A stretch of 56,666 bases of DNA, taken from positions 1 through 56,666 of the forward strand of contig JBNLCD010000001.1 of assembly GCA_050303635.1 (NCBI GenBank). Reading direction: 5' to 3'. Of the stretch, positions 1,666 to 49,173 are shown piece by piece (the stretch's first letter is position 1; the number at the start of each line of letters is the position of its first letter). Below the pieces are notes generated by a model. It had not been told where the DNA came from, did no database searches, and saw nothing but the letters and a program-made list of their open reading frames with translations. Source of the DNA: Anaerolineae bacterium. GTDB lineage: Bacteria > Chloroflexota > Anaerolineae > Aggregatilineales > J027. The position numbers were made by a program, and so were the translations under genes.

Positions 1666-1912
1666 TATTCGTGGTGATGGCTGGCTTAAATAACGATTAA
1701 TAGACAGTCTCCTTCAAGCAATTTCAATGCTTGAGTCTAGCTAAAATTACCTATCTTAGCCAGATTAAACCACTCTAGCATACTTGTTTTGTAAATACTG
1801 CTACGTTTAGCTTGCGAAACCTATACGCATTACATAAAATAAGGAGGCTGTCTTATTAATCTTGGGTGGATCTATTTTTTAGCATTTATTAAGAAAGTGG
1901 GAGACTTCATCA

Positions 1913-5983: not shown

Positions 5984-6059
5984 AATAGCTCCCTAGTTTT
6001 GCGCACCTTCCACATCTCTTCTATTGTACCCAAAATTTGAATCTCGGCATGTCCCACAG

Positions 6060-10559: not shown

Positions 10560-10624
10560 ATGATTGAGTATGCGTATTCATACCAATCTTAGCGCTCTTC
10601 AGTCATCTCGCCAATTTTTGTGTT

Positions 10625-11629: not shown

Positions 11630-12194
11630 TTACCCCGCGCAAATAATGTCGTGCGCGTTCATCTGTTCCCATTCTTTTAGCTAGTTCATTGAGTGCCCGA
11701 TGTTGTGCTGTCATAATTGCCGCTGGACTTTTTTCCAAAATTTCAGCGACTTCTTCGTGAGTTTTCTGTTCGATAAATCGTAAAATTAAGATGGACTGAT
11801 GTGTTTCATTGAGTTGAGCGATAGCTGATTTTAGAGCTTCAAATTCTTCAGCTTGTTCAATATTCCACTCTAAAATCGGTTCTTCGGCGGGAATATCATC
11901 GGCGAGTTCAGTTTGTTGTTCACGCTTCATCTGGCGATAGTAATCCACCAGTTTGGCATGTGCAATCCGATAAAGCCAAGCAACGAAAGGTACACCGCGA
12001 TATTCGTAATTCGGTAACCCTTCAATCATTGCCAGAAAAATTTCAGAAATTAAATCTTCAACAACATTTGGGTGCGATATACGATATGCTACAAAACGCG
12101 TGATAGCATCGATATTTTCGTTATAAAGTTGAGATATGGCTTGCGTGTCGCCTTGTTGGGCACGCTCTATCAACTTCATTTCGTTCTGAGACAT
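11616..12194 (-). CDS. ECF-type RNA polymerase sigma-70 family factor
   Basis: 192 aa. Region 2 (VPFVAWLYRIAHAKLVDYYR) and region 4 HTH (THEEVAEILEKSPAAIMTAQHRALNEL) are recognisable. Confidence 0.85.
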   Translation of the reverse strand: MSQNEMKLIERAQQGDTQAISQLYNENIDAITRFVAYRISHPNVVEDLISEIFLAMIEGLPNYEYRGVPFVAWLYRIAHAKLVDYYRQMKREQQTELADDIPAEEPILEWNIEQAEEFEALKSAIAQLNETHQSILILRFIEQKTHEEVAEILEKSPAAIMTAQHRALNELAKRMGTDERARHYLRGVNDES

Positions 12195-26317: not shown

Positions 26318-28480
26318 TTACTGTTGGGCATTGATTTGGCGGATGTAGGCAATAATATCCCACATTTCCGCCGGACCCCAATCTGCCCGTCCGCCATAAG
26401 CTGGCATAATAATTCCGGTCGTGTTGGCGGCATCATCCGCAAAACGTCCTACTTGGAGGAAATACAGCAAATCTTCATCCGAAATATTCTGAATAAAATC
26501 TGTCCCGATCAAGGCCAAACCAACGCCTTCACCACTGCCGCCGGGGCCATGACAGCCAGCACAAACCTCATGATAATGGAGGAAGCCTAAGGCGGGATTG
26601 CCGGGGATGCTGGTATCATATTCTGGCACCGGAATCGGGGTATTTGTTGGCGGGATAATTTGGATAATGGGCGTAATAGTCTGTTCCGATGGGTTCCGCA
26701 GATCATGGTCCGTTGAAAGGAACTCAGCACCACTAATCACATAAATTTCGCCCGTGTTAGAGATCGTATTATAGGCGCCATCACCACCCATGCCATTTGG
26801 CGCAATATCCACAATGCCGTCATTATCAACATCGCCCACCGCCATTGCGTAGGACATCATATCATTTTCATCAGCCCCGACAATATAGCGGACGATTAGT
26901 CCATTGGGTTCGGCACTTGGCAAGAGAATCTGTCCATCATTGGTCGGGAAACCACCGAGTTCACCAAAGATGACCGCGAGAAAACCTGCATTGCGGCGTG
27001 GTTCGAGATCATAACCCATCGGATCATAATCCGGCACACCATAAAACAAATCATCAACACCATCACGGTTTAGATCGGCCACACGTACGGTGTCGCCACC
27101 CTTGCTATAAGTTTGGTCGGGATAAATAGCAACCATTTTGTCAAAATCAGGATCAGCCAGATCAAACGCTTGACCGGGCAATTCACCATCATTATAAACA
27201 ACCCATGCTTCGCCGCTTTCTAATATGGCATTATTGGGTCCATCGCCAATGAGAGTAGCGACGACAACATCCAGTTGACCGTCCCCATTCAAATCACCCG
27301 TAGCAATTTCTTCACCGAGCAAGTCATTTTCATCAGCTCCATAGAAAACAGTAATTGAGTCATCCAGCGGATAGCCAAATTCATCCACCCGTGTCGCTAA
27401 GTCAATAATCTCGCGACGGAAATTAGCGTTCCCGTAAACAATATAGGTCTCACCCGCATTGTAACGGCTATTCCCCGGACCATCACCGCCACCGAAGGAT
27501 AAACCTTCAACACCCGCTGAACCACGCCACAGGGCCGCACTGACAATCGCATCATCGTAGCCATCGCCATTGACATCATCACCCCAGACCGTTGAGCCCA
27601 GCAAATCATCAAAATCGGCTCCAATAATCCAAGTTGCATCTAAATCATCGGTGGCTAAATCGGTGACGGGACGATATTTCGTCAACAAATACTCATCACC
27701 ATAAATAATCCAAACTTCACCCGCATTGGACCGACTATTTTCATAACCATCGCCTTGATTAGCACCAAGGAGCATATCTTCATAGCCATCGCCATCAAAA
27801 TCGCCACCTTCGACCCACATCCCGAAGCGGTCATTGATATTCGCCCCATAGAAGGTCAAAACATAGGCCGGCGGAGTCCGCAAATCAATATCGGTATTCA
27901 AGGCAAAATCTTTGTTGCCCAAAATCAGATAAACGGCTCCGGCGTTAATGCGTTCGAGGGACGCACCATCATTGTTTTGGGCACCGATGACCAAATCATC
28001 GTAGCCATCGCTATTGAAATCGCCGACATAAATTTCAGTTCCAGCCATGTCGCCCGCATAAGCCCCGTAAACAGTCACAACCGTGTGACTAGGCGTTTGG
28101 TCTTCTTCCATCGCAATTCGGCCACCTACGGTGCACATATCCATCACAATACGGACATGACCTGCTTCGCGCCGCGCACCTTCAGGTCGCAACGTGGTCG
28201 CGTTTTGACCTGTAATGGCAATATCCCCACAGCCATCCCCATCAAAATCACCCAAATCCAACGGCTTGCCGGTTTGCGACGCGCCGGCCGGATTGTCATA
28301 GAACACGAAAAGACCGTTTTGCGGCATAATTTTCAAATCCCACGGATTGCGTCCGGTGGGACCCGAATCTTGAGAATTAGCAGGTTGTGAATTTAGCGCA
28401 AGAAAGGCTAGAAAAGAACTTAATATGAAGATAAAAACAAGTAAATAGCGGATTGAATTATGTTTTAAAAGGGACTGCAT
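26318..28480 (-). CDS. Secreted FG-GAP (integrin-alpha-like) beta-propeller fused to a C-terminal class I c-type cytochrome domain
   Basis: Signal peptide. At least 7 repeats of the GDFDGDG / GDFNSDGYDDLVIGA / GDLNGDGQLDVVVA type. The C-terminal 110 aa carry CAGCH heme attachment and an IIMPAYGG Met ligand region. Confidence 0.8.
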   Translation of the reverse strand: MQSLLKHNSIRYLLVFIFILSSFLAFLALNSQPANSQDSGPTGRNPWDLKIMPQNGLFVFYDNPAGASQTGKPLDLGDFDGDGCGDIAITGQNATTLRPEGARREAGHVRIVMDMCTVGGRIAMEEDQTPSHTVVTVYGAYAGDMAGTEIYVGDFNSDGYDDLVIGAQNNDGASLERINAGAVYLILGNKDFALNTDIDLRTPPAYVLTFYGANINDRFGMWVEGGDFDGDGYEDMLLGANQGDGYENSRSNAGEVWIIYGDEYLLTKYRPVTDLATDDLDATWIIGADFDDLLGSTVWGDDVNGDGYDDAIVSAALWRGSAGVEGLSFGGGDGPGNSRYNAGETYIVYGNANFRREIIDLATRVDEFGYPLDDSITVFYGADENDLLGEEIATGDLNGDGQLDVVVATLIGDGPNNAILESGEAWVVYNDGELPGQAFDLADPDFDKMVAIYPDQTYSKGGDTVRVADLNRDGVDDLFYGVPDYDPMGYDLEPRRNAGFLAVIFGELGGFPTNDGQILLPSAEPNGLIVRYIVGADENDMMSYAMAVGDVDNDGIVDIAPNGMGGDGAYNTISNTGEIYVISGAEFLSTDHDLRNPSEQTITPIIQIIPPTNTPIPVPEYDTSIPGNPALGFLHYHEVCAGCHGPGGSGEGVGLALIGTDFIQNISDEDLLYFLQVGRFADDAANTTGIIMPAYGGRADWGPAEMWDIIAYIRQINAQQ

Positions 28481-28561: not shown

Positions 28562-28800
28562 CTAAAAGAATTCATCGACCAATCGATACCGGCAAATTTT
28601 TGCAGTGTCCGGTGTTATTCCATAAGCTTCAAACAAGATCAGAATGGGTCCCGTGGGGTAAATATTTGAGATAGCGCATTGTCTTTGGGTAGCTTCAGTC
28701 GATACACTTCAGCCGCTGATAGACCATCTTTAGCAGTGGTCCACTGGGCACCATCGATGAGTTGGCTTAATTGGACGGGAATATTTTGGAGCAATGGCAA
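28562..28800 (-). pseudogene. Internally deleted relic of an aminoglycoside-phosphotransferase (APH(3')-like) family gene
   Basis: Hand translation in one frame (28800-28639) gives (L)PLLQNIPVQLSQLIDGAQWTTAKDGLSAAEVYRLKLPKDNALSQIFTPRDPF*. A second frame (28639-28562) gives ILFEAYGITPDTAKICRYRLVDEFF*. These resemble the N-terminus (..W......G.S.A.V.RL) and the extreme C-terminus (..[25 protein letters not shown]) of APH(3')-II. The roughly 190 codons in between are missing. Confidence 0.6.
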
Positions 28801-28817: not shown

Positions 28818-28857
28818 CGAAAATTACTACGATTGATTGCGTGCAACCAATCGTAGT
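28818..28857 (-). terminator. Hairpin terminator after the cytochrome c gene
   Basis: ACTACGATTG-A-TTGC-gt-GCAA-C-CAATCGTAGT long hairpin, followed on the minus strand by AATTTTCG. Confidence 0.55.
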
Positions 28858-28862
28858 TTATT

Positions 28863-29282
28863 CTATTGCAAGGTGAGGAGATAGGCCACCAGATCATCAA
28901 TTTGTTGCGCGGTTAATTTCTCACCAAAGTGTTTATACATCAAACTCATGTCTTCCCCGTTTGCAATATATGCATCTGGTTCAACAATGGATTGATGTAA
29001 ATAGTCGATAGTTGATAAACCATTTACGCGACTACCTGCCCTTGTTGCGATATGGGTAAGTGCCGGACCCACAATGGTTTGGTTGCCTTCAACAGCATGA
29101 CAGGTGCTACATGCGGGGGCGTCCTCATGCCATGCATTGAAAATGATTTGGCCTTCGTCTGGATTTCCGACGGTTTCTGGCGCTGGAATATCTTGATTTT
29201 GTGCACCCGCTTCTTTGCCACCACAGCCCACTAAACCTAGGGCTAACAAGAGCACTAGAAGCAAAATATAATAACGACTCAT
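28863..29282 (-). CDS. Lipoprotein c-type monoheme cytochrome
   Basis: Lipobox LVGC, heme motif CSTCH and a distal Met region (DMSLMY). 139 aa. Confidence 0.8.
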   Translation of the reverse strand: MSRYYILLLVLLLALGLVGCGGKEAGAQNQDIPAPETVGNPDEGQIIFNAWHEDAPACSTCHAVEGNQTIVGPALTHIATRAGSRVNGLSTIDYLHQSIVEPDAYIANGEDMSLMYKHFGEKLTAQQIDDLVAYLLTLQ

Positions 29283-29297
29283 TCACGTTCCTCTCAC

Positions 29298-30494
29298 TTA
29301 TGCGACCAAAAATGCTGTGCCATACATGATGGCAATTCCCACAAATAACCCCAAGAAGTTCAGCGTTGATAATGTGTTTTCTGATCGTTGTTCAGCATGA
29401 CGCTGGATAATGCTCGATACTTCATATACCACTTGCAGAATGGCCCCGGCCCCAATGCTTAAAAAGATGACCGCCAATAAAGGCTCGAAGGTAAATCCAC
29501 CAATCCAAGTTCCTAAAATGGCCGGACCGCCCGCAACAATTGCTAATAACCCAAAATGATGTAATGCTGGGCGTTTCTCGGCAATCGGTGCCGCAATCCC
29601 TATACCCTCGGTGATATTATGCAGGATGAAGCCGATGACTAAGAATGTGCCTAAGGATACTTGGCCAAGCGCAAAAGCACTCCCCACCGCTAAACCCTCG
29701 CCTAGATTATGTAAACCAATACCCAGCGCAATCGTATAGGACAAGAATAATGGACTTGAACCCCGATTAAATGTATGGCTAAATGTCATAACAGCGAGCA
29801 GAGTCACCAAAGTCAACAAAAAGACCAATGGTTCGGCATTAAATGCCCCCGCAACATCACCCGCTACTTCAAGTGCTTCTAGCAACGTATCTACGGCAAG
29901 GAAAACTAACAAGCCAACAGTTAACGCCAGCATAAAATCAAGCCAACGTTGGTCTAATTTGCGGATAAAGGGATACCATAACAAGCCCAAGAAAACGGGC
30001 ACAATCCCGACATAAAATCCGAGCAATCCATAGGCTTGGAATTTCTTCGCCGAAGGTTGCGGCGTTTCTAATGCAACGTCAACTTCAAAGGGAAATGAAA
30101 CACCAGTACTCGTCAAAACGACAATTTCATGCGCTTCGCCTTCAACCCACGGATACGGGATATCTAGCGTAGCGGTTTCAAGCCGATTCAGTTCATTGTC
30201 ACCGCCCTCAATGGTATAGTGCCAATAGGCTTCATCTACTTGAACTTGTGCAATAACTATCGGATCAGGTCCACTATTGATGACATGGAGTTCAAAACCG
30301 TCGTCATTCAACACGATGCGCTGAAGTTCAAGTTCTTCAATCGGTGGAACTTCCTCGGTAAATATCGCCAATGGGTCAATCGCCAAAAATATAGCGATCA
30401 CTGCAATGAGTGCAACCAATGGTAAAAAGCCCATAAGCCATGGCGAAGCGGTTGGATTCGATGTATTTTTTTCAGCACTATTGTTGACTGTCAT
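29298..30494 (-). CDS. ZIP-family metal cation transporter with N-terminal extracytoplasmic domain
   Basis: HNLGEGLAVG and HNITEGIGIA signature helices. A roughly 140-aa beta-rich domain follows the first TM helix. The start overlaps the oxidase gene by 17 nt. Confidence 0.8.
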   Translation of the reverse strand: MTVNNSAEKNTSNPTASPWLMGFLPLVALIAVIAIFLAIDPLAIFTEEVPPIEELELQRIVLNDDGFELHVINSGPDPIVIAQVQVDEAYWHYTIEGGDNELNRLETATLDIPYPWVEGEAHEIVVLTSTGVSFPFEVDVALETPQPSAKKFQAYGLLGFYVGIVPVFLGLLWYPFIRKLDQRWLDFMLALTVGLLVFLAVDTLLEALEVAGDVAGAFNAEPLVFLLTLVTLLAVMTFSHTFNRGSSPLFLSYTIALGIGLHNLGEGLAVGSAFALGQVSLGTFLVIGFILHNITEGIGIAAPIAEKRPALHHFGLLAIVAGGPAILGTWIGGFTFEPLLAVIFLSIGAGAILQVVYEVSSIIQRHAEQRSENTLSTLNFLGLFVGIAIMYGTAFLVA

Positions 30495-31572
30495 CCGAAA
30501 CCTCCGTTTCTAAAGCAGTATCATCGGCTTCAACCCGGAACATGCCCATCCAACCCAATTCAGCAAATTCACTTTGATGCCCGTGGAACATATACATCCC
30601 CGGCACTTTATACGTAAATTCCAGAATGCCGCGTTGGGCCTGACATTGCATAACCGTGTCGATTGTTTTGGAGGTGGGTTCAAGCGTAGTTCCATGATCA
30701 TAATAATCAAAAAACTCTGCATGAATATGCATCGAATTGATGAGATCAAATTCTGTGATATTGATCAAATAAACCCGCACCAATTCATTCACTTTGAGTT
30801 GAATAGGGTTTTCCACATAGGCAAAGGCAATTGAATTAACGGCATAAACATCATTACCATTATCAAAATTGGTATCAAAGCCATTCATGACCATGACCAA
30901 CTCTTTCGCTTCCGGTCGACCTTCTTTAGGATCAACAATAAAAGCGCCATAAAGCCCCTTATGAACATGCCGTTTAAGCGGGATAGCATGGCAATGATAT
31001 AGATGACAGCCAAATGGTTCTGCATCAAATTCATACGTGAAGGAGTCCCCGGGTTGAATCATACCGGGACCTGTCATCTCATACGGCATCCCCGGCATGG
31101 CTGGCACCCCATCCATAACGGCTGAATGAATCCCGTGAAAATGAATGGTGTGTGGATGCGATCCTGCATTCACAAAATTAAGACGAATTTTATCGCCTTC
31201 TGTACAGCGAATGGTGGGTCCGGGAATTTGACCGTTATACGTCCACGCGGGGAAGAAAACACCCGGTGCAATTTCAACTTCTTTATCAATAGCCACGAAA
31301 TAATATTCGCGGACGGTTTGACCGTCTTCTTCGTAAACATTATCCCCATAATTGAAGTCGGTCAGAATTTGCGATGGATGAAATCCATTCCGCTCATGGT
31401 CAACAGTCCCCATCACGCCAAAGACATCCCCGGCATGGCCTGCATGTTTATAGGTTGTGCCCGAATCTTGCTGAGGCGTGGGTTCTTCCACCGGCGGCAA
31501 AAGTCGTGTGACAAAGGCCGCAAGCCCTGTCCCAACGGTACCTAGCATAAAATTGCGGCGATTTATTTTCAT
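30478..31572 (-). CDS. Tat-exported two-domain multicopper oxidase (NirK-fold, T1 site in domain 1)
   Basis: Twin-arginine signal MKINRRNFMLGT. Collinear with NirK (HTIHFHG, YHCHAIPLKRHVHKGLYGAFIV, FHGHQSEFAELG). It carries four HxH pairs (HFH, HCH, HIH, HGH), as expected for a trinuclear Cu cluster. Confidence 0.75.
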   Translation of the reverse strand: MKINRRNFMLGTVGTGLAAFVTRLLPPVEEPTPQQDSGTTYKHAGHAGDVFGVMGTVDHERNGFHPSQILTDFNYGDNVYEEDGQTVREYYFVAIDKEVEIAPGVFFPAWTYNGQIPGPTIRCTEGDKIRLNFVNAGSHPHTIHFHGIHSAVMDGVPAMPGMPYEMTGPGMIQPGDSFTYEFDAEPFGCHLYHCHAIPLKRHVHKGLYGAFIVDPKEGRPEAKELVMVMNGFDTNFDNGNDVYAVNSIAFAYVENPIQLKVNELVRVYLINITEFDLINSMHIHAEFFDYYDHGTTLEPTSKTIDTVMQCQAQRGILEFTYKVPGMYMFHGHQSEFAELGWMGMFRVEADDTALETEVSDDSQQ

Positions 31573-31640
31573 ATAGAATAACTTTCATTTTAGGTTTACC
31601 TAACAAAGTTATTCTATCGGTTAAAGACTGGTTTTGTCAA
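31573..31640 (-). promoter_or_regulatory. Sigma-70-like promoter (TTGACA-18-TAGAAT) overlapped by a 45-bp nested palindrome abutting the oxidase start codon
   Basis: The minus strand reads TTGACA (31640-31635) and TAGAAT (31616-31611). The palindrome is ATAGAATAACTTT...AAAGTTATTCTAT (13-bp perfect arms, 31573-31617), with an inner TTAGGT-nn-ACCTAA. Confidence 0.45.
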
Positions 31641-31666
31641 CCTGTGATCGCTATTTAAGACAAAGC

Positions 31667-31701
31667 GAAAAACTGCTGATCTTGCCTGATCAGCAGTTTT
31701 T
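31667..31701. terminator. Strong bidirectional intrinsic terminator after the MbnH-like gene
   Basis: AAAAA-CTGCTGATC-aggcaa-GATCAGCAG-TTTTT. Confidence 0.8.
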
Positions 31702-31728
31702 CAATCTCTAAATTGCGGTAAGGCTAGT

Positions 31729-33345
31729 CTATTCTTCTTGGAATGGATCACCAAAGCGTGGATTGGTTAACACTGATTCATCCGTTAGGCTTTCCAAGAA
31801 ATTGACCAAATCATCAACTTCTTGGTCAGTAATATCAAATCCCGGCACAAAACCACTCTTATACGGGTTGGTGCGTCCGTCTCCGGCATTGTCACCGTCT
31901 TCAATGACGCGCCCACCATCCGCATAAAAACGAATGACTTCTTCCAACGTTTTAATACTGCCATCATGCATATACGGCCCGGTCAACGCAATATTGCGTA
32001 AACTTTGTGCGCGAAAGCGGCCCATATCACTTGGCTCGCCTGTAATTTCAAACACACCGCGATTATTGGTTGGGAAACCACCTTCACCATCAATATTATA
32101 CAAACCCGTATTGTGGAAAGGCGTTTCGATAAATACTGAAGCCGCGTGGACTGTTGAGTCACTGAAATTGAACCCACCATGACAATGATGACATTCAAAC
32201 CGTTCCCCAAAGAACAAATCCATGCCCCGAATAGCTGATTCCGACAAGGCAGATTTGTCGCCCTCAAACACATATTGATCATACGGCGAATTCGCTGAGA
32301 TTAAGCCACGCACAAAGGTTGCCAGTGCATATTGCATATTCCCAATGGTGAAGGGATCTTCATTGTCAGGGAAAGCAACTGCAAACATCTCTTGATAGCG
32401 CTCATCCTCACGGAAACGGTTGAGTATTTCATCTTCAGAACCTGTCATTCCCAATTCAATTGGGAATTCCCCAAACATGGGAATCAAGACTTGCCGTTCA
32501 ATATGCGTTAATGTTGGATTCGCCCATGTATAGGTAGGGTTATAGGCCACATTCACCAGTGATTGCGAGTTCCGGGGATGGAATTCCCCTGTTGAACCCA
32601 CCGCCACTGTTAAGCCATCCGTAAAAGCACGTGCTTGGAGATGGCAAGTTGAACAAGATTGCGTGCCATTCCCTGATAACCGCGCATCATAAAATAAATA
32701 GCGCCCCAATTGGAATTTTTCTTCTGTCATGGGATTATGGCTAGGCACAATCGGCAATGGGAAACCCGCTGGTAAATTCCAATCAAAGCTTCCTGCTACT
32801 GCATTATCGTCTAATGTCCCAAAACTCGTTGGCACAGCATACGCATTGATAACTTGAAATGTATCAATGACTTGCACATTCCGCCCCGAACCAGCATCAA
32901 ATTGAACGGGTACATCCAATGTGATTGCGTCGCCCGACTCAAAACGCAAGGTAACGGCTACCCTGTTACCTATTTCCAGATCGTTCTGCACACCGTACAA
33001 CATCAAAAATAATGTTCCAGATGTCATTTCAACTTGTACATGTGGATTGAGTGTTAGACCCGCTTCATCGGTTTCTAAACTAGGATTACGATACAAACTC
33101 ACCAAATCAACATTCTCGACAGAAGCCGAAGCCAATTTTTGCGGCGCACTTCCGCTATTGATAATGCTCATGTAAACCGCACTAATATTGACCTGCATGT
33201 GATTCGCATCCGCCGGGGTCGAGTCTGATGTTGGACTGTCTTCTTCATCGTTAGTACGCGTCGCCAAAACATAGCTGGCTACCAATAAGCCGACCAAAAT
33301 AATGCTAAATATCAGGCGATAACGCATAGAACTAAGGAATTTCAT
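31729..33345 (-). CDS. mbnH: Fusion of a PCuAC-like (DUF461-like) domain and an MbnH-family di-heme cytochrome c peroxidase-like enzyme
   Basis: N-terminal TM/signal sequence. Residues about 50-150 (AVYMSIINSGSAPQKL...LFLMLYGVQNDLEIGNRVAVTLRFESGDAITLDVPVQ) follow the PCuAC fold pattern. Two heme motifs follow, CSTCH and CHHCH, in a CCP/MbnH-like context. Confidence 0.7.
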   Translation of the reverse strand: MKFLSSMRYRLIFSIILVGLLVASYVLATRTNDEEDSPTSDSTPADANHMQVNISAVYMSIINSGSAPQKLASASVENVDLVSLYRNPSLETDEAGLTLNPHVQVEMTSGTLFLMLYGVQNDLEIGNRVAVTLRFESGDAITLDVPVQFDAGSGRNVQVIDTFQVINAYAVPTSFGTLDDNAVAGSFDWNLPAGFPLPIVPSHNPMTEEKFQLGRYLFYDARLSGNGTQSCSTCHLQARAFTDGLTVAVGSTGEFHPRNSQSLVNVAYNPTYTWANPTLTHIERQVLIPMFGEFPIELGMTGSEDEILNRFREDERYQEMFAVAFPDNEDPFTIGNMQYALATFVRGLISANSPYDQYVFEGDKSALSESAIRGMDLFFGERFECHHCHGGFNFSDSTVHAASVFIETPFHNTGLYNIDGEGGFPTNNRGVFEITGEPSDMGRFRAQSLRNIALTGPYMHDGSIKTLEEVIRFYADGGRVIEDGDNAGDGRTNPYKSGFVPGFDITDQEVDDLVNFLESLTDESVLTNPRFGDPFQEE

Positions 33346-33467
33346 AATTTACAACTTATCTCTGGTTATTGAGGTAAACCGCTGAACTGTTTCATGATGA
33401 ACAACTCAGCGGCATTTATTCTAGCAATCTAGATGTAGGGTTTGAAGACTATTCGCGTTGGCGGAGT

Positions 33468-34517
33468 CTAGTCGTGGTGCATTTCATCCATATTGCTCTC
33501 ATCGTGTTCACTGTGGTCCATGTCCATATCACCATCCATGTTCATTTCATCGGTCATGTCCACAGTTTCAACCATGGTCACATCATCCACACTCGCCAAA
33601 CGGAAAAAGTGTTGATTCATACAATCACCGTCTAAACAAGCACCTGTTTCCATATCCAGACCAAAACTCGCAAATGTTGCTGGACAATCTGGGTCATCAA
33701 AGCCTGACATACAACCGGGGGGTGAAACCGTATTCTCATTCAAATCAATGGTCGAGAAAAATAGACCTAAATCAGCGACGACAACATCGCCTTCCCCAAA
33801 TTCATCAAAGGTAATGGTGGTGATATTGGGACGGCCACACCGTTCAGTTGGCGGCGTAGTTGAGTCTGGAGATTCGCACGCCGTGCTTCCAATATGGATA
33901 AGCCATGCCAAATCAGTATCAACCATCGTATCAATGCGGATAAACTTATAACCACCCGCCCAGTTCCACCACATGGATGGACTATTTAAGGGGGCAGGAG
34001 CAGTCGCTGTATTGAGGTGATTGAGTTCGAATGGCACCCCCATATCAAATTGCAAGCCCACATAATCCCCTACGGGCAATTGACCACGTAACGTCCCATT
34101 GAGCGCGGCATTACCGCTGGCATCACATCCGGCGGTACCATCTTCAAAATCAAGCAAAGCCACATTGGCATATTGCCAGATAGCATCTTGCTCGAGTTGG
34201 AGTGGTACGGCTTCACCATCGGCGGTCAAGAAATTAATATTGGAGACATAAAAACGAAAATCAGTAATACTAATCGCATTTTCACCAAGGCCGATAGCGG
34301 AATATTCCATGCCGCACATGGCCATTTCGTCACCAACCATTGCAACAAAAGGTATCTCAACTGACATCATTTCCTCGCCACCATCTTGAGCTTGAGTCAA
34401 TTGATTTCCAGTTAATACAAAGCTCACCATGATAAGGGCGATCAAAACCGAACGTACCCACACTGACATATCTTGCTCCTTGAATTGAAAATTTAATGAA
34501 TAGGAATTATTTCGCAT
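33468..34517 (-). CDS. mbnP: MbnP-family copper-binding protein with Met/His/Asp-rich C-terminal tail
   Basis: FRFYVSNINFL, ALLDFEDGTAGCD, GVPFELNH, MWWNWAGGYKFIRID and conserved Cys residues match my recollection of the MbnP ('metallo-mystery pair') family. The tail is DMTDEMNMDGDMDMDHSEHDESNMDEMHHD. The likely true start is ATG near 34469 (MSVWVRS), after AAGGAG. Confidence 0.7.
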   Translation of the reverse strand: MRNNSYSLNFQFKEQDMSVWVRSVLIALIMVSFVLTGNQLTQAQDGGEEMMSVEIPFVAMVGDEMAMCGMEYSAIGLGENAISITDFRFYVSNINFLTADGEAVPLQLEQDAIWQYANVALLDFEDGTAGCDASGNAALNGTLRGQLPVGDYVGLQFDMGVPFELNHLNTATAPAPLNSPSMWWNWAGGYKFIRIDTMVDTDLAWLIHIGSTACESPDSTTPPTERCGRPNITTITFDEFGEGDVVVADLGLFFSTIDLNENTVSPPGCMSGFDDPDCPATFASFGLDMETGACLDGDCMNQHFFRLASVDDVTMVETVDMTDEMNMDGDMDMDHSEHDESNMDEMHHD

Positions 34518-34687: not shown

Positions 34688-36292
34688 TTACTTTCTCAAC
34701 AACGGCGACCACAGCAAAACTTGGTCATTCGAATAATGAAAATTATCGTAGAGTGGCTCTTCGGTCAATACAACTTCTGTACCCGAGTCGGGATGAATCG
34801 CTAACAATCTATCTGGTCGACAAGCCAGATTGTATACATCCTCAGTACAAACCTGCACAAGGAACCAGCTTTCATCAGGCGCGGCATTCCCGTACCAATA
34901 CCCCCTGAACGATTCATCGGATAGAAATTCATAACTCACTCCGGTTTGCCAGTTATACGCTAGATTTTGGAATGTACCATCTGCATATTCAGCATAGAGA
35001 AATAACCATGTGCCATTTTCGCTAAAACGTGGCCAACGGGCATCATCCAAATAATGTACTGTTCTGGCATCTAAAGCTGTATTGAGGGAAAGATGCTCAC
35101 CCTCCGGTGTATAAAGATCAAGCGATGTTTCATCTTGATCGCTCACCAACATAAATTGACCATTTGGCTCAATAAGATAGGGTGTTGTTAGATTGCGATA
35201 AACAGGTTCATCCAAAAGGGTTTGACCAGTCCAATGCCAGCGCGAAACCGAGAATTCATTATCACCTTTTTGGACATTCCAATAGATCAGGGTATCGCCT
35301 TCAAAATAGTAAACTGGATTCTGCTCATCTATATGGGCTTCAAAACTGACCACGCTTAATGACGTGAGATCAATAACACCCATATTATTGTCGCTAAGGA
35401 AAGCCACTTTTACGTAATCAGGGCTGATTTTAATTGAATGACCTGCCGCAAGTTCTGTTAAACTATCACTTTGTAGATCATATAGAAAAATCTTGGTATC
35501 ACCGACAGCATAAGGATACGCAAATAACCAGCGCCCATCCCCAATCGGATAACTTTCATACGCCAAGGCATCTTCATCAATCTCCGCAAAGCGTTCCCGA
35601 AAATCGACAAGCGTTTCACCCGATTCCATATCAACCAAAATGGCTGTTTCTTCCATATAGCTGATTAAATACACTTGATGATCTTGCCATGCACTGATAA
35701 AAGTTCCCATCGCTTCAAAATTTTGGACCTGACCCGAGCCGAGATTGATCACATGCGAGGTGTATTGCAAAGCCGTATTCACCAATAAATAATTGCCATC
35801 GTCAGACATGCCTTGGATAACAAGTGCCTCCGTATAAGCGATAGATTCCTCATCAATCACCGAATCTTCGCGGACAAGTTGCGGCGCGGCGCTGGCAATA
35901 TCAATTTGGTAGAGATACGTGCCGTGGATATCTGCAACGTCTGCGGTCAAATCTGGCGCAACACCCGCGGCTATTAAACGACCATCATCCAGCCATTGGG
36001 GCGTGATCATAAACACGTCATATTGGCCAAAAAGCAAATAATCGGGGAGCGAGTCAACTTGCCATGTATTATCTGTTCGCAACTTGGCTAAATAAATATG
36101 TTCATTTGTTTGGAATATCAAGCCATACTGTACTTCAGGGTCAGTTTGGGCCTGTGCAGATGATGCCTTGAACCCTGTTTGTCCAAAACTTGCTAATGTG
36201 ATCAATAAACATACTATCCCGCCAATGATTACACGTCCAACACGCATAGCAAATTCCCTTCTGATCAGCGACGAATACGTTAACTGTAGCAT
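34688..36292 (-). CDS. Secreted/anchored beta-propeller-like protein, tandem paralog A, unknown function
   Basis: Roughly half of residues are identical to the next gene along the full length (YGL..., GDGRW.FAYPY, WPRFSE.G.WLF, PDESW.L.QVC, LLAIHP.SGTEVVL, QVLLWSP). The likely true start is ATG at 36247 (MRVGRVIIGG), aligning with MRLGRLIL of the paralog. Confidence 0.65.
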   Translation of the reverse strand: MLQLTYSSLIRREFAMRVGRVIIGGIVCLLITLASFGQTGFKASSAQAQTDPEVQYGLIFQTNEHIYLAKLRTDNTWQVDSLPDYLLFGQYDVFMITPQWLDDGRLIAAGVAPDLTADVADIHGTYLYQIDIASAAPQLVREDSVIDEESIAYTEALVIQGMSDDGNYLLVNTALQYTSHVINLGSGQVQNFEAMGTFISAWQDHQVYLISYMEETAILVDMESGETLVDFRERFAEIDEDALAYESYPIGDGRWLFAYPYAVGDTKIFLYDLQSDSLTELAAGHSIKISPDYVKVAFLSDNNMGVIDLTSLSVVSFEAHIDEQNPVYYFEGDTLIYWNVQKGDNEFSVSRWHWTGQTLLDEPVYRNLTTPYLIEPNGQFMLVSDQDETSLDLYTPEGEHLSLNTALDARTVHYLDDARWPRFSENGTWLFLYAEYADGTFQNLAYNWQTGVSYEFLSDESFRGYWYGNAAPDESWFLVQVCTEDVYNLACRPDRLLAIHPDSGTEVVLTEEPLYDNFHYSNDQVLLWSPLLRK

Positions 36293-36397: not shown

Positions 36398-38062
36398 TTA
36401 TGGATTGCTCAATACCGGTGACCACAGAAGAACCTGATGAGTTGAATGCATAGAATTATCCAAAAGGTCTTTTTCCGCTAAAACAACTTCTGTTCCAGAT
36501 TCGGGGTGAATAGCTAATAATTTATAAGAGCCACACCCGGCTTTATTCACATCATCTGCACAAACTTGGATGAGTAGCCAGCTCTCATCAGGTGACATAT
36601 TACCGTACTTAGAATATTGAAATACTGAGCCTCTTGGGATTTCATAACGAAGATTCGTTCGCCAATTATAGACTAATTTATGGTGGATATTATCTTCATC
36701 TGTCACGTCGAGAAATAACCACGCGCCTTTTTCACTGAAGCGTGGCCACCTTTCATCATCAAGATAACGAATAGTTTTCACCCCTAAAACATCATTTAAA
36801 GCAACTTGGGTACCATCGGGTGTATAGAGCGTGAGTGCTAGCTGATCTTCGTTTTGAATAAGCACAAAATCTCCACTCGGATGGATCAGGTAGGGCGCAG
36901 GTGGGCCTGCATAAACAAGGGTTTCTACCAATGCTTGACCCGTCCACTTCATTTGAGTAATGGTTAGCTCCTCTTTATTGTTCACAATGTCCCAGTAGAA
37001 CAAGTTATCACCTTCCCAATAATAAAGCGGAGTTTTAGGACCTAAATTTGAGTAGAAAGGTGTATGGGCATCAAAATAGGAATTTGCATAAAGAGACGGC
37101 TTAGGGTCTAAACTTGCTTCAAATTCAAGGACTTCACCCGTATCCAGATCAAGAAGGCCAACCCCATCTACATTTGAATACAAGAACGCTACCTGATTCT
37201 GGGTTTCATTGATTTTGGGAGCATAGCCTTCCGCAAGTGATACTAAACTGTCACGGGTTGAGTCATAAAGCCAGATGTGCGCATCTTCTAGAAAATAAGG
37301 ATACGCGAAGATCCAACGACCATCACCAACGGGATATCCGCCAAAAGCGAGATCCGATTGCCCAATATCGGTAAATTTTGCCAACAAATCAGCTACGATT
37401 TCGCCGGTTTCCATATTGGCTAGGTAAGCCGATGAGCCTGAGTGTTCGATAGCATATAAATAAATCTGCTTATCTTGCCACCTAATCAAGCGCATACCCT
37501 GCTCATTAAAATCTTGTGAAACACCTGACTGTAAATTAACAATGTGGGTAGTATACCGAAAAGCGGCGTTGACCATTAAATACTGACCATCATCCGACAG
37601 TCCTCGAATATCAAGAGCTTCGTAATGACCGTCGAGGGTTTCCTCGTCAATAATAGAACCTTCAACCAGAGGGTGTACCTGCGCGGTTACGATATCAATT
37701 TCATACAGATAAATCGCGCGCAGATTACTATCATCTGGTAAATCGGACGCGACACCCGTCGCCAATAAACGGCCATCAGCCATCCAGCGTGGTGCAACGG
37801 TAAACACATCATATTGACCAAAAGGTAACCGTGCATCATACATACTAAAGTGTAAATAGCCGGGTAAGGCATCAACTTGCCATGTATTATCCATGAACAA
37901 CTTAGCTAAATAAACACGCCCACCTGCCTTATAAACAAGACCATATCGTATCTCGTTGCTAGTTTGCGCCTTGGCGACTGGTCTAGTTAACTGAGTTCGG
38001 CGAAAACCACTGAAGATCATGGTGCAGATTAGCAACACCAGAATTAATCTCCCTAGTCGCAT
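36398..38062 (-). CDS. Secreted/anchored beta-propeller-like protein, tandem paralog B, unknown function
   Basis: 554 aa with an N-terminal hydrophobic signal/anchor. Collinear with paralog A. Confidence 0.65.
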   Translation of the reverse strand: MRLGRLILVLLICTMIFSGFRRTQLTRPVAKAQTSNEIRYGLVYKAGGRVYLAKLFMDNTWQVDALPGYLHFSMYDARLPFGQYDVFTVAPRWMADGRLLATGVASDLPDDSNLRAIYLYEIDIVTAQVHPLVEGSIIDEETLDGHYEALDIRGLSDDGQYLMVNAAFRYTTHIVNLQSGVSQDFNEQGMRLIRWQDKQIYLYAIEHSGSSAYLANMETGEIVADLLAKFTDIGQSDLAFGGYPVGDGRWIFAYPYFLEDAHIWLYDSTRDSLVSLAEGYAPKINETQNQVAFLYSNVDGVGLLDLDTGEVLEFEASLDPKPSLYANSYFDAHTPFYSNLGPKTPLYYWEGDNLFYWDIVNNKEELTITQMKWTGQALVETLVYAGPPAPYLIHPSGDFVLIQNEDQLALTLYTPDGTQVALNDVLGVKTIRYLDDERWPRFSEKGAWLFLDVTDEDNIHHKLVYNWRTNLRYEIPRGSVFQYSKYGNMSPDESWLLIQVCADDVNKAGCGSYKLLAIHPESGTEVVLAEKDLLDNSMHSTHQVLLWSPVLSNP

Positions 38063-39490: not shown

Positions 39491-39508
39491 ACAAAACTTC
39501 CTTCAATG

Positions 39509-46006: not shown

Positions 46007-46920
46007 TATAAAACCTTGATTGCTAGTTGAAATCGTTCATGGAGAACCCGTTAGAATAGAGTTGTCAGACAAAATTCAACGGGAAACTCACATGAACGAC
46101 GACTATATTGTACCGGTTTATGTCATCATTGATGAACTCTTAGGCGCGATGAATTACCAAGATGATGTACGAGCGCAAGTGAAAGCGGCAGAAATAATGA
46201 CCATTGCCATTGTAGCAGCCAAATACTTTCAAAATCACCATGAGCGCGCGGTCTGTATGATGGTCCGCTTAGGCTACATCAAGGCTTGTAGTGTCTCACG
46301 CTTTAATCGACGCTTACATGCACTTGCCCACTGGCTCTGGCATGTGACGCAAATCTTGGGTGAAGTTTTCGCCTACGGTGAAATATTTGTCATTGATACG
46401 ATGCCCATTCCGGTTTGCAAGTTCGTCCGCGCTAAGCGCTGTAAAAAAGTGCAAGGTTTAGCCTATCACGGTTACTGTGCTAGCAAACGGGAACATTATT
46501 TTGGCTGGCAACTCCATTTGGTCTGTGATCAGTTTGGCGTACCCGTTGCTTTTGAACTTTTGCCGGCTAAATGGGACGAATTAGTCCCGCTTCAGGCTTT
46601 GCTAGCACCTCTGAAGTGGGGTAGCAAAGTCGTGGCGGATAAAGGCTATATCAGTGCCCATGAGCAAATTTTAGCGTATGTCTATGGTGGCATTTATCTA
46701 GTTGCTAAAGCACGTAAAAACATGCCCAACAATAGTCCCACGGAGGCCCGTCTTATTCGACGGCATCGGTCTGCTATTGAAACACTCAATAGCCAACTTG
46801 AGAAAATGGGACTGCAACGTCTCCATGCACGCACCAATGCTGGTCTAGCTGTTAAAGTACTAGCTTCCTTAGCTGCTTTGACTTTTTCAAATTCTATTCT
46901 CTAGCAATTAAGGTTATAAA
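46007..46920 (+). mobile_element. IS982-family insertion sequence
   Basis: Imperfect terminal inverted repeats TATAAAACCTTGATTGCTAG (46007-46026) and CTAGCAATTAAGGTTATAAA (46901-46920) flank a single DDE transposase ORF. No target-site duplication could be identified by eye. Confidence 0.7.
46020..46904 (+). CDS. IS982-family DDE transposase
   Basis: The VIDTMPIPVC, HYFGWQLH, ADKGYIS and HRSAIETLNSQL blocks match the IS982 transposase pattern. The probable start is ATG at 46092. Confidence 0.8.
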   Translation: MLVEIVHGEPVRIELSDKIQRETHMNDDYIVPVYVIIDELLGAMNYQDDVRAQVKAAEIMTIAIVAAKYFQNHHERAVCMMVRLGYIKACSVSRFNRRLHALAHWLWHVTQILGEVFAYGEIFVIDTMPIPVCKFVRAKRCKKVQGLAYHGYCASKREHYFGWQLHLVCDQFGVPVAFELLPAKWDELVPLQALLAPLKWGSKVVADKGYISAHEQILAYVYGGIYLVAKARKNMPNNSPTEARLIRRHRSAIETLNSQLEKMGLQRLHARTNAGLAVKVLASLAALTFSNSIL

Positions 46921-47072
46921 TATTTTGACAGAATGACCCCGCAATTTTTTACAAAATTCCTCAACCCAAGAAACCTTAAACTTCGCTTTCAAAACTAGTC
47001 AATATAATAAAGGATATGTTAAGCTATTAAAACTCAGTACATTTTGTCTAAACAACGCAAAGGAATGAGTAA

Positions 47073-47738
47073 ATGAGCGGAAATTTGCATTCTGTGCCCC
47101 CGACTGATGACATGGACGAATGGGAAGATGAACCCATTGAAGGGTACTGCATGTCTTGCCGCGATAAAGTCGAAATTGAAAATCCACAAGCTGTTTGGAC
47201 AAGCCAAGGACGACCCGGTACGCGCGGCACCTGTCCAATGTGCGGCGGCACCGTTTATCGCATGGGTAAAACCGATGCCCACGACAAACTCAAACAACCT
47301 GAAGCCGTTCAAGTTGTTGATAATAGCGGCATTCGCAAAACCAAAGCCGCCAAGATTAAGATTGAAGCGGCCACATATGTCGTCGGCGCACCTGCGGATA
47401 GCGACTTGGTTGAACGTATTGCCAAAGATCTAGATACATTTGGTATCGCAACTTGGTCTGATACGGAGGCCACTGTGGAAGACGTCAACTGGGCCGGTGG
47501 TGTTCATCCAGCCTTGGTTCAGTGTAAGAAAATGGTAGTCGTAATTTCTTCTGCCGCAATCAACTCTGAAAATGTTGAGGAATCATGGCGCTATTTCCGT
47601 GACCAGCGCAAGCCCGTGATTGTAGCCTTAGCTGAAAATATTGATCCGCCCGATGATTTGCGCAGTCGTCCGCGTTTTGATTTACATTCCGATTATAAAA
47701 AAGGCTTCCGTCAACTCATGGCTCAACTCTCCCGTTAA
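47073..47738 (+). CDS. Zinc-ribbon (DUF5679-like) + TIR-domain protein
   Basis: N-terminal YCMSCRDKVEIENPQAVWTSQGRPGTRGTCPMCGGTVYRMGK. The C-terminal 130 aa follow the TIR_2 pattern (ATYVVGAPADSDLVERIAKDLDTFGIATWSD...VVVISSAAINSENVEESWRYF...PVIVAL). Confidence 0.65.
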   Translation: MSGNLHSVPPTDDMDEWEDEPIEGYCMSCRDKVEIENPQAVWTSQGRPGTRGTCPMCGGTVYRMGKTDAHDKLKQPEAVQVVDNSGIRKTKAAKIKIEAATYVVGAPADSDLVERIAKDLDTFGIATWSDTEATVEDVNWAGGVHPALVQCKKMVVVISSAAINSENVEESWRYFRDQRKPVIVALAENIDPPDDLRSRPRFDLHSDYKKGFRQLMAQLSR

Positions 47739-47862
47739 TTGAGCGATTGTTGAGGACCTGTCAAAATTTGTAAATCTGCTTGATTTTGAGGACAAACTCA
47801 TTATAAACTGTAGACATAATTGATTTACAATTAAATATTCACCGAAAACAATTGCCACCTTT

Positions 47863-48246
47863 ATGTTTTTAAGACCTGTTTATCTTATTAGACGTAGAGG
47901 TGGCATTATGCGTATCTTCAGTCGCTACTTCATACTCGCTCTGGTTATATCATTCGTCGCGCTTCGCCTAATTACCCATTCAACCGACCTACAAACGCAA
48001 TCTAAAACCGCTAATCATCAATATTTCAAAGCTGTGCAAGGCGAACCGCCCAACCCTGACCGAGAGGTTCTGCGCTTTGAGCGAGAATCTGAAGTCATCG
48101 TTTATTATGCTCTATGGCATCAAGGCGCACACTATCAGGTTCAGTGTGTGTTGACCAATAAAATGCTACTAGATTGTGAAGCTGTCATTCATTACGGTCT
48201 GGTACGTGTTCCTGCCAGTGATCGTTATGTGTTCAACTGGGATTAG
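47863..48246 (+). CDS. Small membrane-anchored hypothetical protein
   Basis: The likely start is ATG at 47908 (MRIFSRYFILALVISFVALRLI), after GAGGTGG. It has one TM helix. Confidence 0.45.
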   Translation: MFLRPVYLIRRRGGIMRIFSRYFILALVISFVALRLITHSTDLQTQSKTANHQYFKAVQGEPPNPDREVLRFERESEVIVYYALWHQGAHYQVQCVLTNKMLLDCEAVIHYGLVRVPASDRYVFNWD

Positions 48247-48282
48247 CCATGGACATATTTTTATCAACAATGAAACTCGCTT

Positions 48283-48328
48283 AAACACAGGTCGTATTTT
48301 CTGATGCGCCTGTGTTTATTAATTTTTT
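48283..48328 (+). terminator. Intrinsic terminator
   Basis: AAACACAGG-17 nt-CCTGTGTTT followed by ATTAATTTTTT. Confidence 0.7.
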
Positions 48329-48399
48329 ACGCAACTTATATTGAGCAACCATGCTACCCTAGAAATATATGCTTGCGCTGAGTCTAGGGAGATTGATCA

Positions 48400-49173
48400 A
48401 TGCGTATCGCTATTTTTTCAGATGTCCATGGCAATATTCATGCGTTTGAAGCTGTTCTCTCAGCTATTCAAAAAAATGGCCCTTTTGATCAAATATTATT
48501 TGCGGGCGATTTGGTTTTGGGTGGCGCTAACCCTAAAGATTGCGTTGATCTCCTCAAGGCCAATAATATTCGAGGTGTGCATGGCAACACCGACTTAATT
48601 GCCATTGACCCACCCCCGCGTTCAGAAGATTGGGATGCAAACACTCAACAACTTTGGCAAATGAGATATGCCCGCATCGATTGGACGCGGACTCAAATTG
48701 GGCCTGATGGGCTAGCTTATCTACAATCCCTTCCTTTTGAAATCCGCCTAGCGCCTGATGAAAAGACTGAGCATGATTTACTTGTTGTCCATGCCAATCC
48801 GGTGGATGTTGATCAAGTGATTTTGCCGCCAGAGACTATGCAACAAGCAGAAATGGGCAAAATAACACAACCCGATTCAGAAGTTTTACCCCTCCTCCAA
48901 GATGTCACTGCGCTCACAATTGCCTTTGGCCATATCCACGTCCCCAATATTCGCCACATCGGAGACTATACCCTTGCCAATATTGCTTCAGTTAGTTTCC
49001 CTCAAGATCATGATTGGCGTGCTAAATGGGGTGTTTTGGAATTTAGAGACAACCAATGGGACGTCACTCACCACTATGTTGACTATGATGTTCAAGCGGC
49101 TCGCCAAGCCTATTCTGATATGGATATGCCCTATCCCGATCAATTGATTGCGGGGCTATTGTTGCCCGATTAG
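48400..49173 (+). CDS. Calcineurin-like metallophosphoesterase (YfcE/MJ0936-like)
   Basis: Motifs in order: SDVHGN, AGDLV, HGNTD, VVHANP, FGHIH. Confidence 0.85.
   Translation: MRIAIFSDVHGNIHAFEAVLSAIQKNGPFDQILFAGDLVLGGANPKDCVDLLKANNIRGVHGNTDLIAIDPPPRSEDWDANTQQLWQMRYARIDWTRTQIGPDGLAYLQSLPFEIRLAPDEKTEHDLLVVHANPVDVDQVILPPETMQQAEMGKITQPDSEVLPLLQDVTALTIAFGHIHVPNIRHIGDYTLANIASVSFPQDHDWRAKWGVLEFRDNQWDVTHHYVDYDVQAARQAYSDMDMPYPDQLIAGLLLPD

Follow-up and report, generated by a model that had tools for sequence, protein, structure and literature searches.

Introduction

The families MbnP (TIGR04052) and MbnH (TIGR04039) make up the "metallo-mystery pair", with described members in Methylosinus trichosporium OB3b (PDB 7L6G and 6E1C). 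In the characterised pair, MbnH turns the WxW tryptophan of MbnP into kynurenine, enabling copper binding (PMC11951088), and orphan MbnP/MbnH pairs are a known kind (PMC3621798). Another pair, a two-domain multicopper oxidase (MCO) with a ZIP permease, has already been noted as conserved in ammonia-oxidizing archaea, where an oxidase-permease uptake model was proposed by analogy with Fet3p-Ftr1p (PMC7785015). Here we describe a locus in which both kinds of pair stand side by side, at positions 28863-34517 of a window of 56,666 nt (the whole stretch of DNA analysed: positions 1-56,666 of contig JBNLCD010000001.1, assembly GCA_050303635.1) from an Anaerolineae bacterium (Aggregatilineales; J027).

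A preliminary description had read the five genes of this locus as a single route for copper capture, redox chemistry and import. Our analysis favours another reading, which we consider probable: the locus consists of two autonomous extracytoplasmic metal modules that became adjacent through a lineage-specific insertion of about 3.1 kb, and the inserted MCO-ZIP module would be an MntR-type-repressed uptake system, most likely for Mn2+, the two together not forming one copper pathway.

Layout of the locus

The five open reading frames (ORFs) are all encoded on the minus strand, in the order MbnP, PCuAC-MbnH, terminator, promoter, MCO, ZIP and cytochrome c (ORF list of the window):

33468-34517, minus strand: MbnP-family copper-binding protein with a Sec signal peptide (TIGR04052, PF20243, PDB 7L6G)
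31729-33345, minus strand: MbnH-family di-heme enzyme, membrane-anchored, with an N-terminal PCuAC-like fusion (TIGR04039, PDB 6E1C, two CxxCH)
31666-31703, minus strand: intrinsic terminator after MbnH (16-bp stem then a T-run, -26.5 kcal/mol, z = -5.9)
31611-31640, minus strand: sigma-70-type promoter driving the MCO operon, TTGACA-18-TAGAAT (11 of 12 positions match the consensus)
30478-31572, minus strand: Tat-exported two-domain MCO with an HCH motif in domain 1 (PF07732 and PF07731)
29298-30494, minus strand: ZIP-family permease with an extra N-terminal transmembrane helix and an extracytoplasmic beta-sandwich (HNxxEG twice, Foldseek match to BbZIP)
28863-29282, minus strand: lipoprotein mono-heme cytochrome c, a clade-specific accessory of the cassette (PF00034 41.8 bits, lipobox LVGC, CSTCH)
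28826-28857, minus strand: hairpin terminator after the cytochrome c gene, at the end of the presumably inserted cassette (14-bp stem, -19.4 kcal/mol, z = -4.0)

Profile searches bore out the five identities proposed in the preliminary description (MbnP, PCuAC-like MbnH, Tat-exported two-domain MCO, ZIP and lipoprotein cytochrome c): the NCBIfam/TIGRFAM and Pfam models for MbnP, MbnH and PCuAC scored above their cut-offs, the two cupredoxin-domain models matched, and Zip scored slightly under its cut-off. The proposed division into two transcription units also holds, the terminator (31703-31666) and the promoter (31640-31611) lying between them. So does the lack of methanobactin and TonB genes within the window, where Pfam scans of ORFs of at least 120 amino acids, a size limit that an MbnA-sized peptide would escape, found no TonB or methanobactin biosynthesis gene. 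The syntenic relatives are likewise without MbnA, MbnB, MbnC or an MbnT TonB-dependent transporter nearby. Finally, the MbnP-MbnH-MCO-ZIP junction recurs, 99.9% identical, in an independent assembly from a second sample, hence the locus is not an assembly chimera.

The pairing of MbnPH with MCO-ZIP is not conserved

In one integrated surface copper route, MbnH-matured MbnP would capture copper, the oxidase and the cytochrome c would set its redox state and ZIP would import it. Several observations are compatible with such a route: the five products are all extracytoplasmic or membrane proteins, three of them belong to copper-related families, two independent samples show the same stable arrangement, and copper uptake has been proposed for the archaeal MCO1-ZIP pair (PMC7785015). 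Moreover, at one other locus (L173) MbnP/MbnH lies beside a CopC-CopD importer-type gene, so that MbnPH can be linked to import. We nevertheless regard the integrated route as quite improbable, first of all because the pairing of MbnPH with MCO-ZIP failed to recur in reciprocal tests.

From the MCO side, one genome per species was scanned with an MCO alignment, which gave 80 loci with their 10-kb flanks from at least nine phyla (Chloroflexota, Deinococcota, Actinomycetota, Alpha- and Gammaproteobacteria, Rhodothermota/Bacteroidota, Planctomycetota, Myxococcota and a candidate phylum). A ZIP gene with an N-terminal extension lies directly downstream of the MCO gene in about 77 of these 80 loci, the remainder being cut by contig ends. 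MCO-ZIP is a widespread, conserved and often plasmid-borne two-gene module in its own right. None of the 80 loci has MbnP or MbnH within 10 kb of MCO-ZIP, and a cytochrome c gene follows ZIP in a single one of these species-representative loci (L016). From the MbnH side, 80 metagenome loci were found with an MbnH alignment; MbnP is directly upstream of MbnH in 68 of them, while MCO or ZIP occurs in none (0/80). MCO-ZIP was also absent from the five loci that encode PCuAC-MbnH fusions like that of the window (0/5); one of these (L173) has a CopC-CopD fusion upstream and two have a divergent two-component system. Where MbnPH pairs lack the fusion, the genes that recur beside them encode a sigma-54 activator and a histidine kinase, and no link to a transporter emerges.

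The five-gene arrangement is also missing from the closest syntenic relative of the window. The preliminary description had itself staked its copper capture, redox and import route on conservation in relatives; since the neighbourhood is not conserved, that route was not upheld.

A self-contained cassette next to MbnH

The closest syntenic relative, L087, is collinear with window positions 41942-19072 (about 23 kb) at roughly 80-86% nucleotide identity, and its MbnH is 89% identical. The single major difference around the locus is that it lacks window positions 31742-28636 (about 3.1 kb), that is the terminator, the promoter, a palindrome described below, and the MCO, ZIP and cytochrome c genes. 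At the site of this segment, 125 bp after MbnH, L087 carries an intact gene of 259 codons for an aminoglycoside phosphotransferase (APH). In the window, the same gene persists as a remnant:

28565-28794, minus strand: APH pseudogene flanking the insertion (tblastn with the intact L087 APH)

The remnant retains codons 1-53, with a frameshift, and codons 223-259, around an internal deletion of about 510 bp. In L088, a more distant metagenome-assembled genome of Aggregatilineales, SufE-SufS-MbnP-MbnH is followed by a UvrD helicase gene. The closest relative of the MCO (81% amino acid identity) is found on L081, which aligns at 71.6% nucleotide identity over exactly 31672-28854, from the promoter to the stop codon of the cytochrome c gene; the promoter regions of the two cassettes are homologous, and the L081 cassette is flanked by genes unrelated to those of the window. 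L082 also carries MCO-ZIP-cytochrome c without MbnPH.

By parsimony, these alignments are best explained if the lineage of the window gained by insertion, between MbnH and APH, a cassette complete in itself and about 3.1 kb long, after which APH would have decayed. That the cassette is absent from L087, and that a strong terminator separates the two units while the second starts from a promoter of its own, followed by an operator-like palindrome associated with MntR-type regulators, both argue against the integrated copper route. Because the juxtaposition appears to be a recent accident of cassette insertion, the five-gene copper claim should not be carried forward.

Two families occur both in the window and next to the L081 cassette. 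In the window, the stretch 46020-49173 groups genes for a DDE transposase, a DUF5679-TIR_2 protein and a Metallophos phosphoesterase, and in L081 a TIR_2 gene and fragmented Metallophos genes (644-3146) lie directly upstream of the MCO cassette. The shared families are either a coincidence or a trace of a former location of the cassette. A move of the cassette within the genome, out of the neighbourhood of the TIR_2/Metallophos genes at 47-49 kb, was considered and not demonstrated, the identity to the L081 counterparts being 30-42% at the amino acid level.

The Suf cluster (SufC, SufB/D, rhodanese, SufE and SufS) lies upstream of MbnPH in all three related contigs. In L087 a CN_hydrolase gene (2431-3370) stands between SufE and SufS; it is absent at the corresponding point of the window, 39505-39508.

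Regulation and mobility of MCO-ZIP

Downstream of the -10 box and ahead of the MCO start codon, the window holds the palindrome already mentioned:

31590-31603, no strand assigned: operator-like palindrome TTAGGTTTACCTAA, TTAGG-N4-CCTAA (the only match in the window)

The same palindrome recurs at MCO-ZIP promoters. Of 31 matches in 1.12 Mb searched, 21 fall within 300 bp upstream of the first gene of the operon, although these upstream regions make up 1.8% of the sequence (p = 1e-29). Further palindromes lie 29-36 bp upstream of genes for DtxR-family regulators, and L081 has a symmetric variant. The window palindrome gains its weight from position and cross-genome recurrence, not from the single match.

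A DtxR-family regulator is also the commonest neighbour of MCO-ZIP (16 of 68 loci clustered), and its gene is often immediately upstream and co-oriented. These regulators score about 200-223 bits against a Thermus-type MntR model and about 100 bits against DtxR. At the positions of DtxR Met10 and Cys102 they carry Asp in 15 of 17 and Glu or Asp in 17 of 17, respectively, which is the pattern of B. subtilis MntR. The TTAGG half-site resembles the DtxR/IdeR box, but the 4-nt spacer of the palindrome is unlike the 19-bp DtxR box, and we treat it as a candidate operator. On a Deinococcus plasmid (L170), genes for a metal-dependent transcriptional regulator and an Nramp transporter lie divergent from MCO-ZIP, with two palindromes in the shared intergenic region. 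The module resembles the MntR/DtxR regulons that govern Mn importers such as MntH, an Nramp transporter, both in the MntR-scoring regulators with MntR-type ligand residues found next to it in other genomes and in the Nramp gene that shares its regulatory region on the Deinococcus plasmid. Together, the regulator association, the palindrome and the Nramp linkage suggest that the second module is a metal-starvation-type uptake operon, probably Mn-responsive. A literature search found no functional study of the bacterial MCO-ZIP module.

The same neighbourhoods bear on the possibility that MCO-ZIP, with or without the cytochrome c, acquires copper independently of MbnPH, the oxidase converting Cu(I) to Cu(II) and ZIP importing the Cu(II). 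In ammonia-oxidizing archaea, MCO1 and its adjacent permease are mildly up-regulated under copper limitation (PMC7785015). PCuAC, SCO, CopZ and HMA-ATPase genes stand near some bacterial copies (SCO and CopZ on the Deinococcus plasmid, for instance), and the MCO is related to the archaeal MCO4 structure 9CCK. However, the commonest neighbouring regulator is of MntR type with Mn-type ligand residues, the copper sensors CsoR, CopY and CueR are not consistently linked to MCO-ZIP, and it is an Nramp Mn transporter that shares the regulatory region on the Deinococcus plasmid. We therefore consider independent copper acquisition unlikely.

The MCO gene was found on 128 plasmids, of which 74 are conjugative. 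On a Peribacillus plasmid (L171) TatA and TatC genes lie downstream of MCO-ZIP, and on a Rhodococcus plasmid (L172) the downstream genes encode a Rieske protein, a cytochrome oxidase assembly-like protein, ArsR and a P-type ATPase. This mobility would fit a metal-resistance or detoxification element of plasmids and islands, in which the oxidase is CueO/CopA-like (cuprous, or ferrous or manganous) and ZIP is compensating or efflux-like. The P0008 lineage copy indeed sits among ArsR regulators, two P-type ATPases, a CDF exporter, transposases and integrases, and MerA, MerR and CDF genes recur nearby. Nevertheless, a resistance element appears very improbable to us. First, to our knowledge all characterised ZIP proteins are importers. 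Second, a palindrome downstream of the -10 box combined with MntR-type regulators fits repression under metal-replete conditions, which is the pattern of an uptake system. Third, Pfam scans found no resistance genes flanking the cassette in the window.

MbnP and MbnH

The MbnP ORF of 349 amino acids scored 251.7 bits against TIGR04052 (cut-off 140) and 128.3 bits against PF20243 (cut-off 27), and matched the solved structure 7L6G with E = 1.8e-40. Translation probably begins inside this ORF, at the ATG at 34469; that start lies behind an AGGAG box and is conserved in orthologs. Among 62 homologs, W168-N-W170, H192, C198, C211 and C262 are 100% conserved, and H151, C52, C115 and C253 are 97-98% conserved. 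The role of the WxW as the kynurenine-precursor motif is taken from the characterised pair (PMC11951088). Upstream of MbnP, in a region conserved with L087 and L088, neither a recognisable copper-sensor operator nor a strong promoter was found.

The protein ends in a tail that the preliminary description had already pointed out:

33468-33572, minus strand: C-terminal tail of MbnP rich in Met, His and Asp, VETVDMTDEMNMDGDMDMDHSEHDESNMDEMHHD (seen in the sequence itself)

Among the 62 MbnPs compared, this tail is clade-specific: it is present only in the window, L087, L088 and L089, and in none of the 58 others. It would probably serve as an extra, low-affinity metal capture.

MbnH, encoded directly downstream, is 538 amino acids long. 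It scored 534.4 bits against TIGR04039 (cut-off 362.85) and matched 6E1C with E = 1.4e-128. Its heme motifs, CSTCH at residues 231-235 and CHHCH at residues 385-389, are invariant in the alignment. By homology, the membrane-anchored MbnH would act on secreted MbnP, oxidising its WxW tryptophan to kynurenine and so creating the copper site of MbnP. Compared with the OB3b pair, the window shares both families, the order MbnP-MbnH, the WxW, the invariant His, the Cys pattern and two CxxCH motifs. It differs from it by the lack of a methanobactin operon and of a TonB-dependent transporter, by the membrane anchor and the degenerate PCuAC-like domain of MbnH, by the Met/His/Asp tail of MbnP and by its Chloroflexota (Aggregatilineales-like) host. 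The MbnP/MbnH of the window is an orphan pair of a type that is common in Chloroflexota.

The additional domain of MbnH lies near its N-terminus:

32920-33195, minus strand: PCuAC-like domain at residues 51-142 of MbnH, which has lost the canonical Cu(I) ligands (PF04314 45.7 bits, cut-off 29.4)

Its likeness to the PCuAC chaperones and PmoF1 (2K6W, 6P16) consists of the PF04314 score above cut-off and a weak match to PmoF1 (6P16, E = 2e-4), but the ligands of the Cu(I) motif H(M)X10MX21HXM are replaced or deleted. In our alignment A3 the motif is absent from the window, P0122 and P0123: where relatives read LH...ARMR...HIML, these three have LY, a deleted Met loop and FLML. Longer, more distant PCuAC-MbnH fusions in the same alignment retain the Cu(I) ligands. 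Since the canonical ligands are replaced or deleted, the domain is unlikely to be a classical Cu(I) chaperone here, which is a further point against the integrated route; it probably has a docking or structural role.

Fusions of this kind are common in Chloroflexota, with PF04314 and PF03150 found together in about one third or more of the 120 best matches. Many Chloroflexota MbnH proteins of about 675 amino acids (P0125, P0127, P0135, P0141 and similar in alignment A3; L174 and L175) have an extra N-terminal domain with multiple transmembrane helices and a linker rich in His (HDHHDHDHG...), and the Cu(I) ligands of their PCuAC domain are intact; a HisKA_3/GerE two-component pair lies divergent from MbnP. 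At L173 (4300-9590), a gene for a 758-amino acid CopC-CopD-YtkA-PCuAC fusion lies directly upstream of DUF4397-MbnP and PCuAC-MbnH. L173 is a more plausible natural arrangement of MbnPH plus importer than the window.

Oxidase, permease and cytochrome c

The MCO has 364 amino acids in two cupredoxin domains and shares its ligand motifs with the two-domain MCOs of structures 7RAB/7RAC and 3GDC (Arthrobacter); it is very close in sequence to 7RAB (E = 2.6e-169) and 3GDC (E = 2.2e-135). The searchable literature yielded no functional study of 7RAB or 3GDC. The invariant ligands form the full His/Cys set for a T1 site and a trinuclear centre (H139, H141, H144, H146, H190, H193, C194, H195, H202, H204, H282, H284, H330 and H332). 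Domain 1 contains HPHTIHFH, HCH and H202/H204, and domain 2 has HxH at 282-284 and 330-332; judging from these motifs, the T1 site would be in domain 1. The Tat signal reads MKINRRNFMLG, with R5 and R6 at least 90% conserved in 21 homologs. The family is unusually well conserved, at 55-65% identity across phyla. The match to the archaeal MCO4 structure 9CCK is E = 2.5e-57. An identification of 7RAB as Nmar_1354 was rejected: Nmar_1354 is 9CCK, an MCO4 and a more distant relative of the window MCO. The closest homolog (P0001; L081 3281-4423) has a Met/Asp-rich C-terminal tail, EMNMDMDADSEMDMDTDTEMEMSDDDQ, which resembles the tail of MbnP in the window. Unlike it, the tail of the window MCO is acidic only.

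The ZIP permease has 398 amino acids, and its start overlaps the end of the MCO gene by 17 nt. Its Pfam Zip score of 31.2 is under the gathering cut-off of 35.1. Two observations settle the assignment despite this score: HNxxEG is invariant twice, on two helices (H262/N263/E266 and H292/N293/E296), and the AlphaFold model matches BbZIP 5TSA in Foldseek with E = 1.7e-7 and 26% identity. The N-terminal part of the protein forms a distinct domain:

30060-30362, minus strand: extracytoplasmic beta-sandwich of ZIP, residues about 45-145 (AlphaFold strands at 55-138, pLDDT 79-91)

This domain of about 100 residues defines the ZIP subfamily. It has 599 cluster representatives, which nearly all lie near residues 35-150 of ZIP-length proteins or fragments. 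An alignment of homologs contains no conserved His, Cys or Met in it, which is again difficult to reconcile with the integrated copper route. A fold search with the domain returned weak Ig-like matches only (FlaF/FlaG, DsbD-N, and PmoF1 at E = 0.04), hence its function cannot be assigned by fold. Apparent MCO-ZIP fusions (P0386, P0462, P0400 and P0408) were rejected as Rosetta-stone evidence, being garbled or frame-shifted gene calls.

The cytochrome c has 139 amino acids and one CxxCH, and a cytochrome c gene 3' of ZIP occurs only in the window, L081, L082 and L016.

Neighbouring genes

Directly upstream of MbnP, two tandem paralogous genes at 34688-36292 and 36398-38062 encode proteins of 534 and 554 amino acids with an N-terminal signal or anchor, for which no Pfam or NCBIfam match was found. 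L087 has one copy of 519 amino acids and L088 none, which points to a recent duplication. On the other side of the locus, 26318-28480 encodes a secreted protein of 720 amino acids that carries FG-GAP repeats and, at its C-terminus, a cytochrome c domain; its counterpart in L087 is 94% identical in amino acid sequence and adjoins the APH gene there. Farther away, a co-directional group at 4193-12194 comprises a Ser/Thr protein kinase, a 1499-amino acid AAA_16/TPR protein, a 334-amino acid protein and an ECF sigma factor, and may be a signalling cluster unrelated to the metal modules.

Discussion

We thus favour, as the probable explanation, two autonomous modules brought together by an insertion. 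The second module would be repressed by an MntR-type regulator, that is a Mn(II)-sensing member of the DtxR family encoded elsewhere in the genome, acting through TTAGG-N4-CCTAA, and would take up a divalent metal, most likely Mn2+. The Tat-exported oxidase would act at the mouth of ZIP, possibly docked on its beta-sandwich, and the lipoprotein cytochrome c would be the electron partner of the oxidase.

Several points weigh against this reading. That the cassette was gained rather than lost is a parsimony argument with a single outgroup, L088, and the adjacency is stable across two samples of this species, which could exploit it functionally. Within the window alone the palindrome match is not significant (1.15 expected at up to one mismatch), and the 56.7-kb window holds no MntR or DtxR gene. 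The oxidase has no obvious role in Mn2+ import, and both the copper uptake proposed for archaeal MCO1-ZIP and its mild induction under copper limitation point to another metal (PMC7785015). Lastly, MCO-ZIP neighbourhoods include HMA P-type ATPases (11 loci), ArsR (8), CDF (6), MerA (4) and PCuAC (3). Owing to these copper- and heavy-metal-type neighbours, copper or metal-resistance roles of MCO-ZIP keep the low probabilities that we gave them above.

Among described systems, the MCO1 and ZIP of N. viennensis (NVIE_000600/NVIE_000590) form an analogous pair, a two-domain MCO directly linked to a ZIP permease. The bacterial module differs by its MntR-type regulators, by TTAGG-N4-CCTAA and by its frequent location on plasmids, and in the window by the extra cytochrome c. 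With the Fet3p-Ftr1p iron uptake of yeast it shares the logic of a multicopper oxidase and a membrane permease, but the permease is ZIP and not Ftr1/OFeT. Since ZIPs carry divalent cations, a trivalent ion produced by the oxidase would be of no use to the permease. A broader proposal, which we put forward only tentatively, is that bacterial MCO-ZIP is a widespread, mobile, MntR-controlled system of oxidase-coupled metal uptake, a ZIP-based prokaryotic counterpart of Fet3-Ftr1, with lineage-specific electron partners (the cytochrome c here, the Rieske protein in Rhodococcus); insertion beside MbnPH could then add a local copper supply for the oxidase.

A conserved five-gene route, if true, would have given the MbnP/MbnH "mystery pairs" a physiological context and linked copper import to ZIP. 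What the locus adds is a Chloroflexota MbnPH pair with an anchor, a degenerate PCuAC domain and a tail, a bacterial MCO-ZIP module with a cytochrome c and a candidate MntR-type operator, and evidence of a recent insertion. The window and L087 form a clean natural before-and-after pair for the mobility of a complete promoter-to-terminator metal operon, and the PCuAC-MbnH fusions, with their copper ligands intact or degenerate, offer a handle on how MbnP obtains copper. The lead worth following is the functionally uncharacterised MCO-ZIP module rather than the island. Now that a likely regulator is defined, together with candidates for the operator and the electron partners, its function is directly testable, and it bears on the role of the homologous-looking pair in ammonia-oxidizing archaea.

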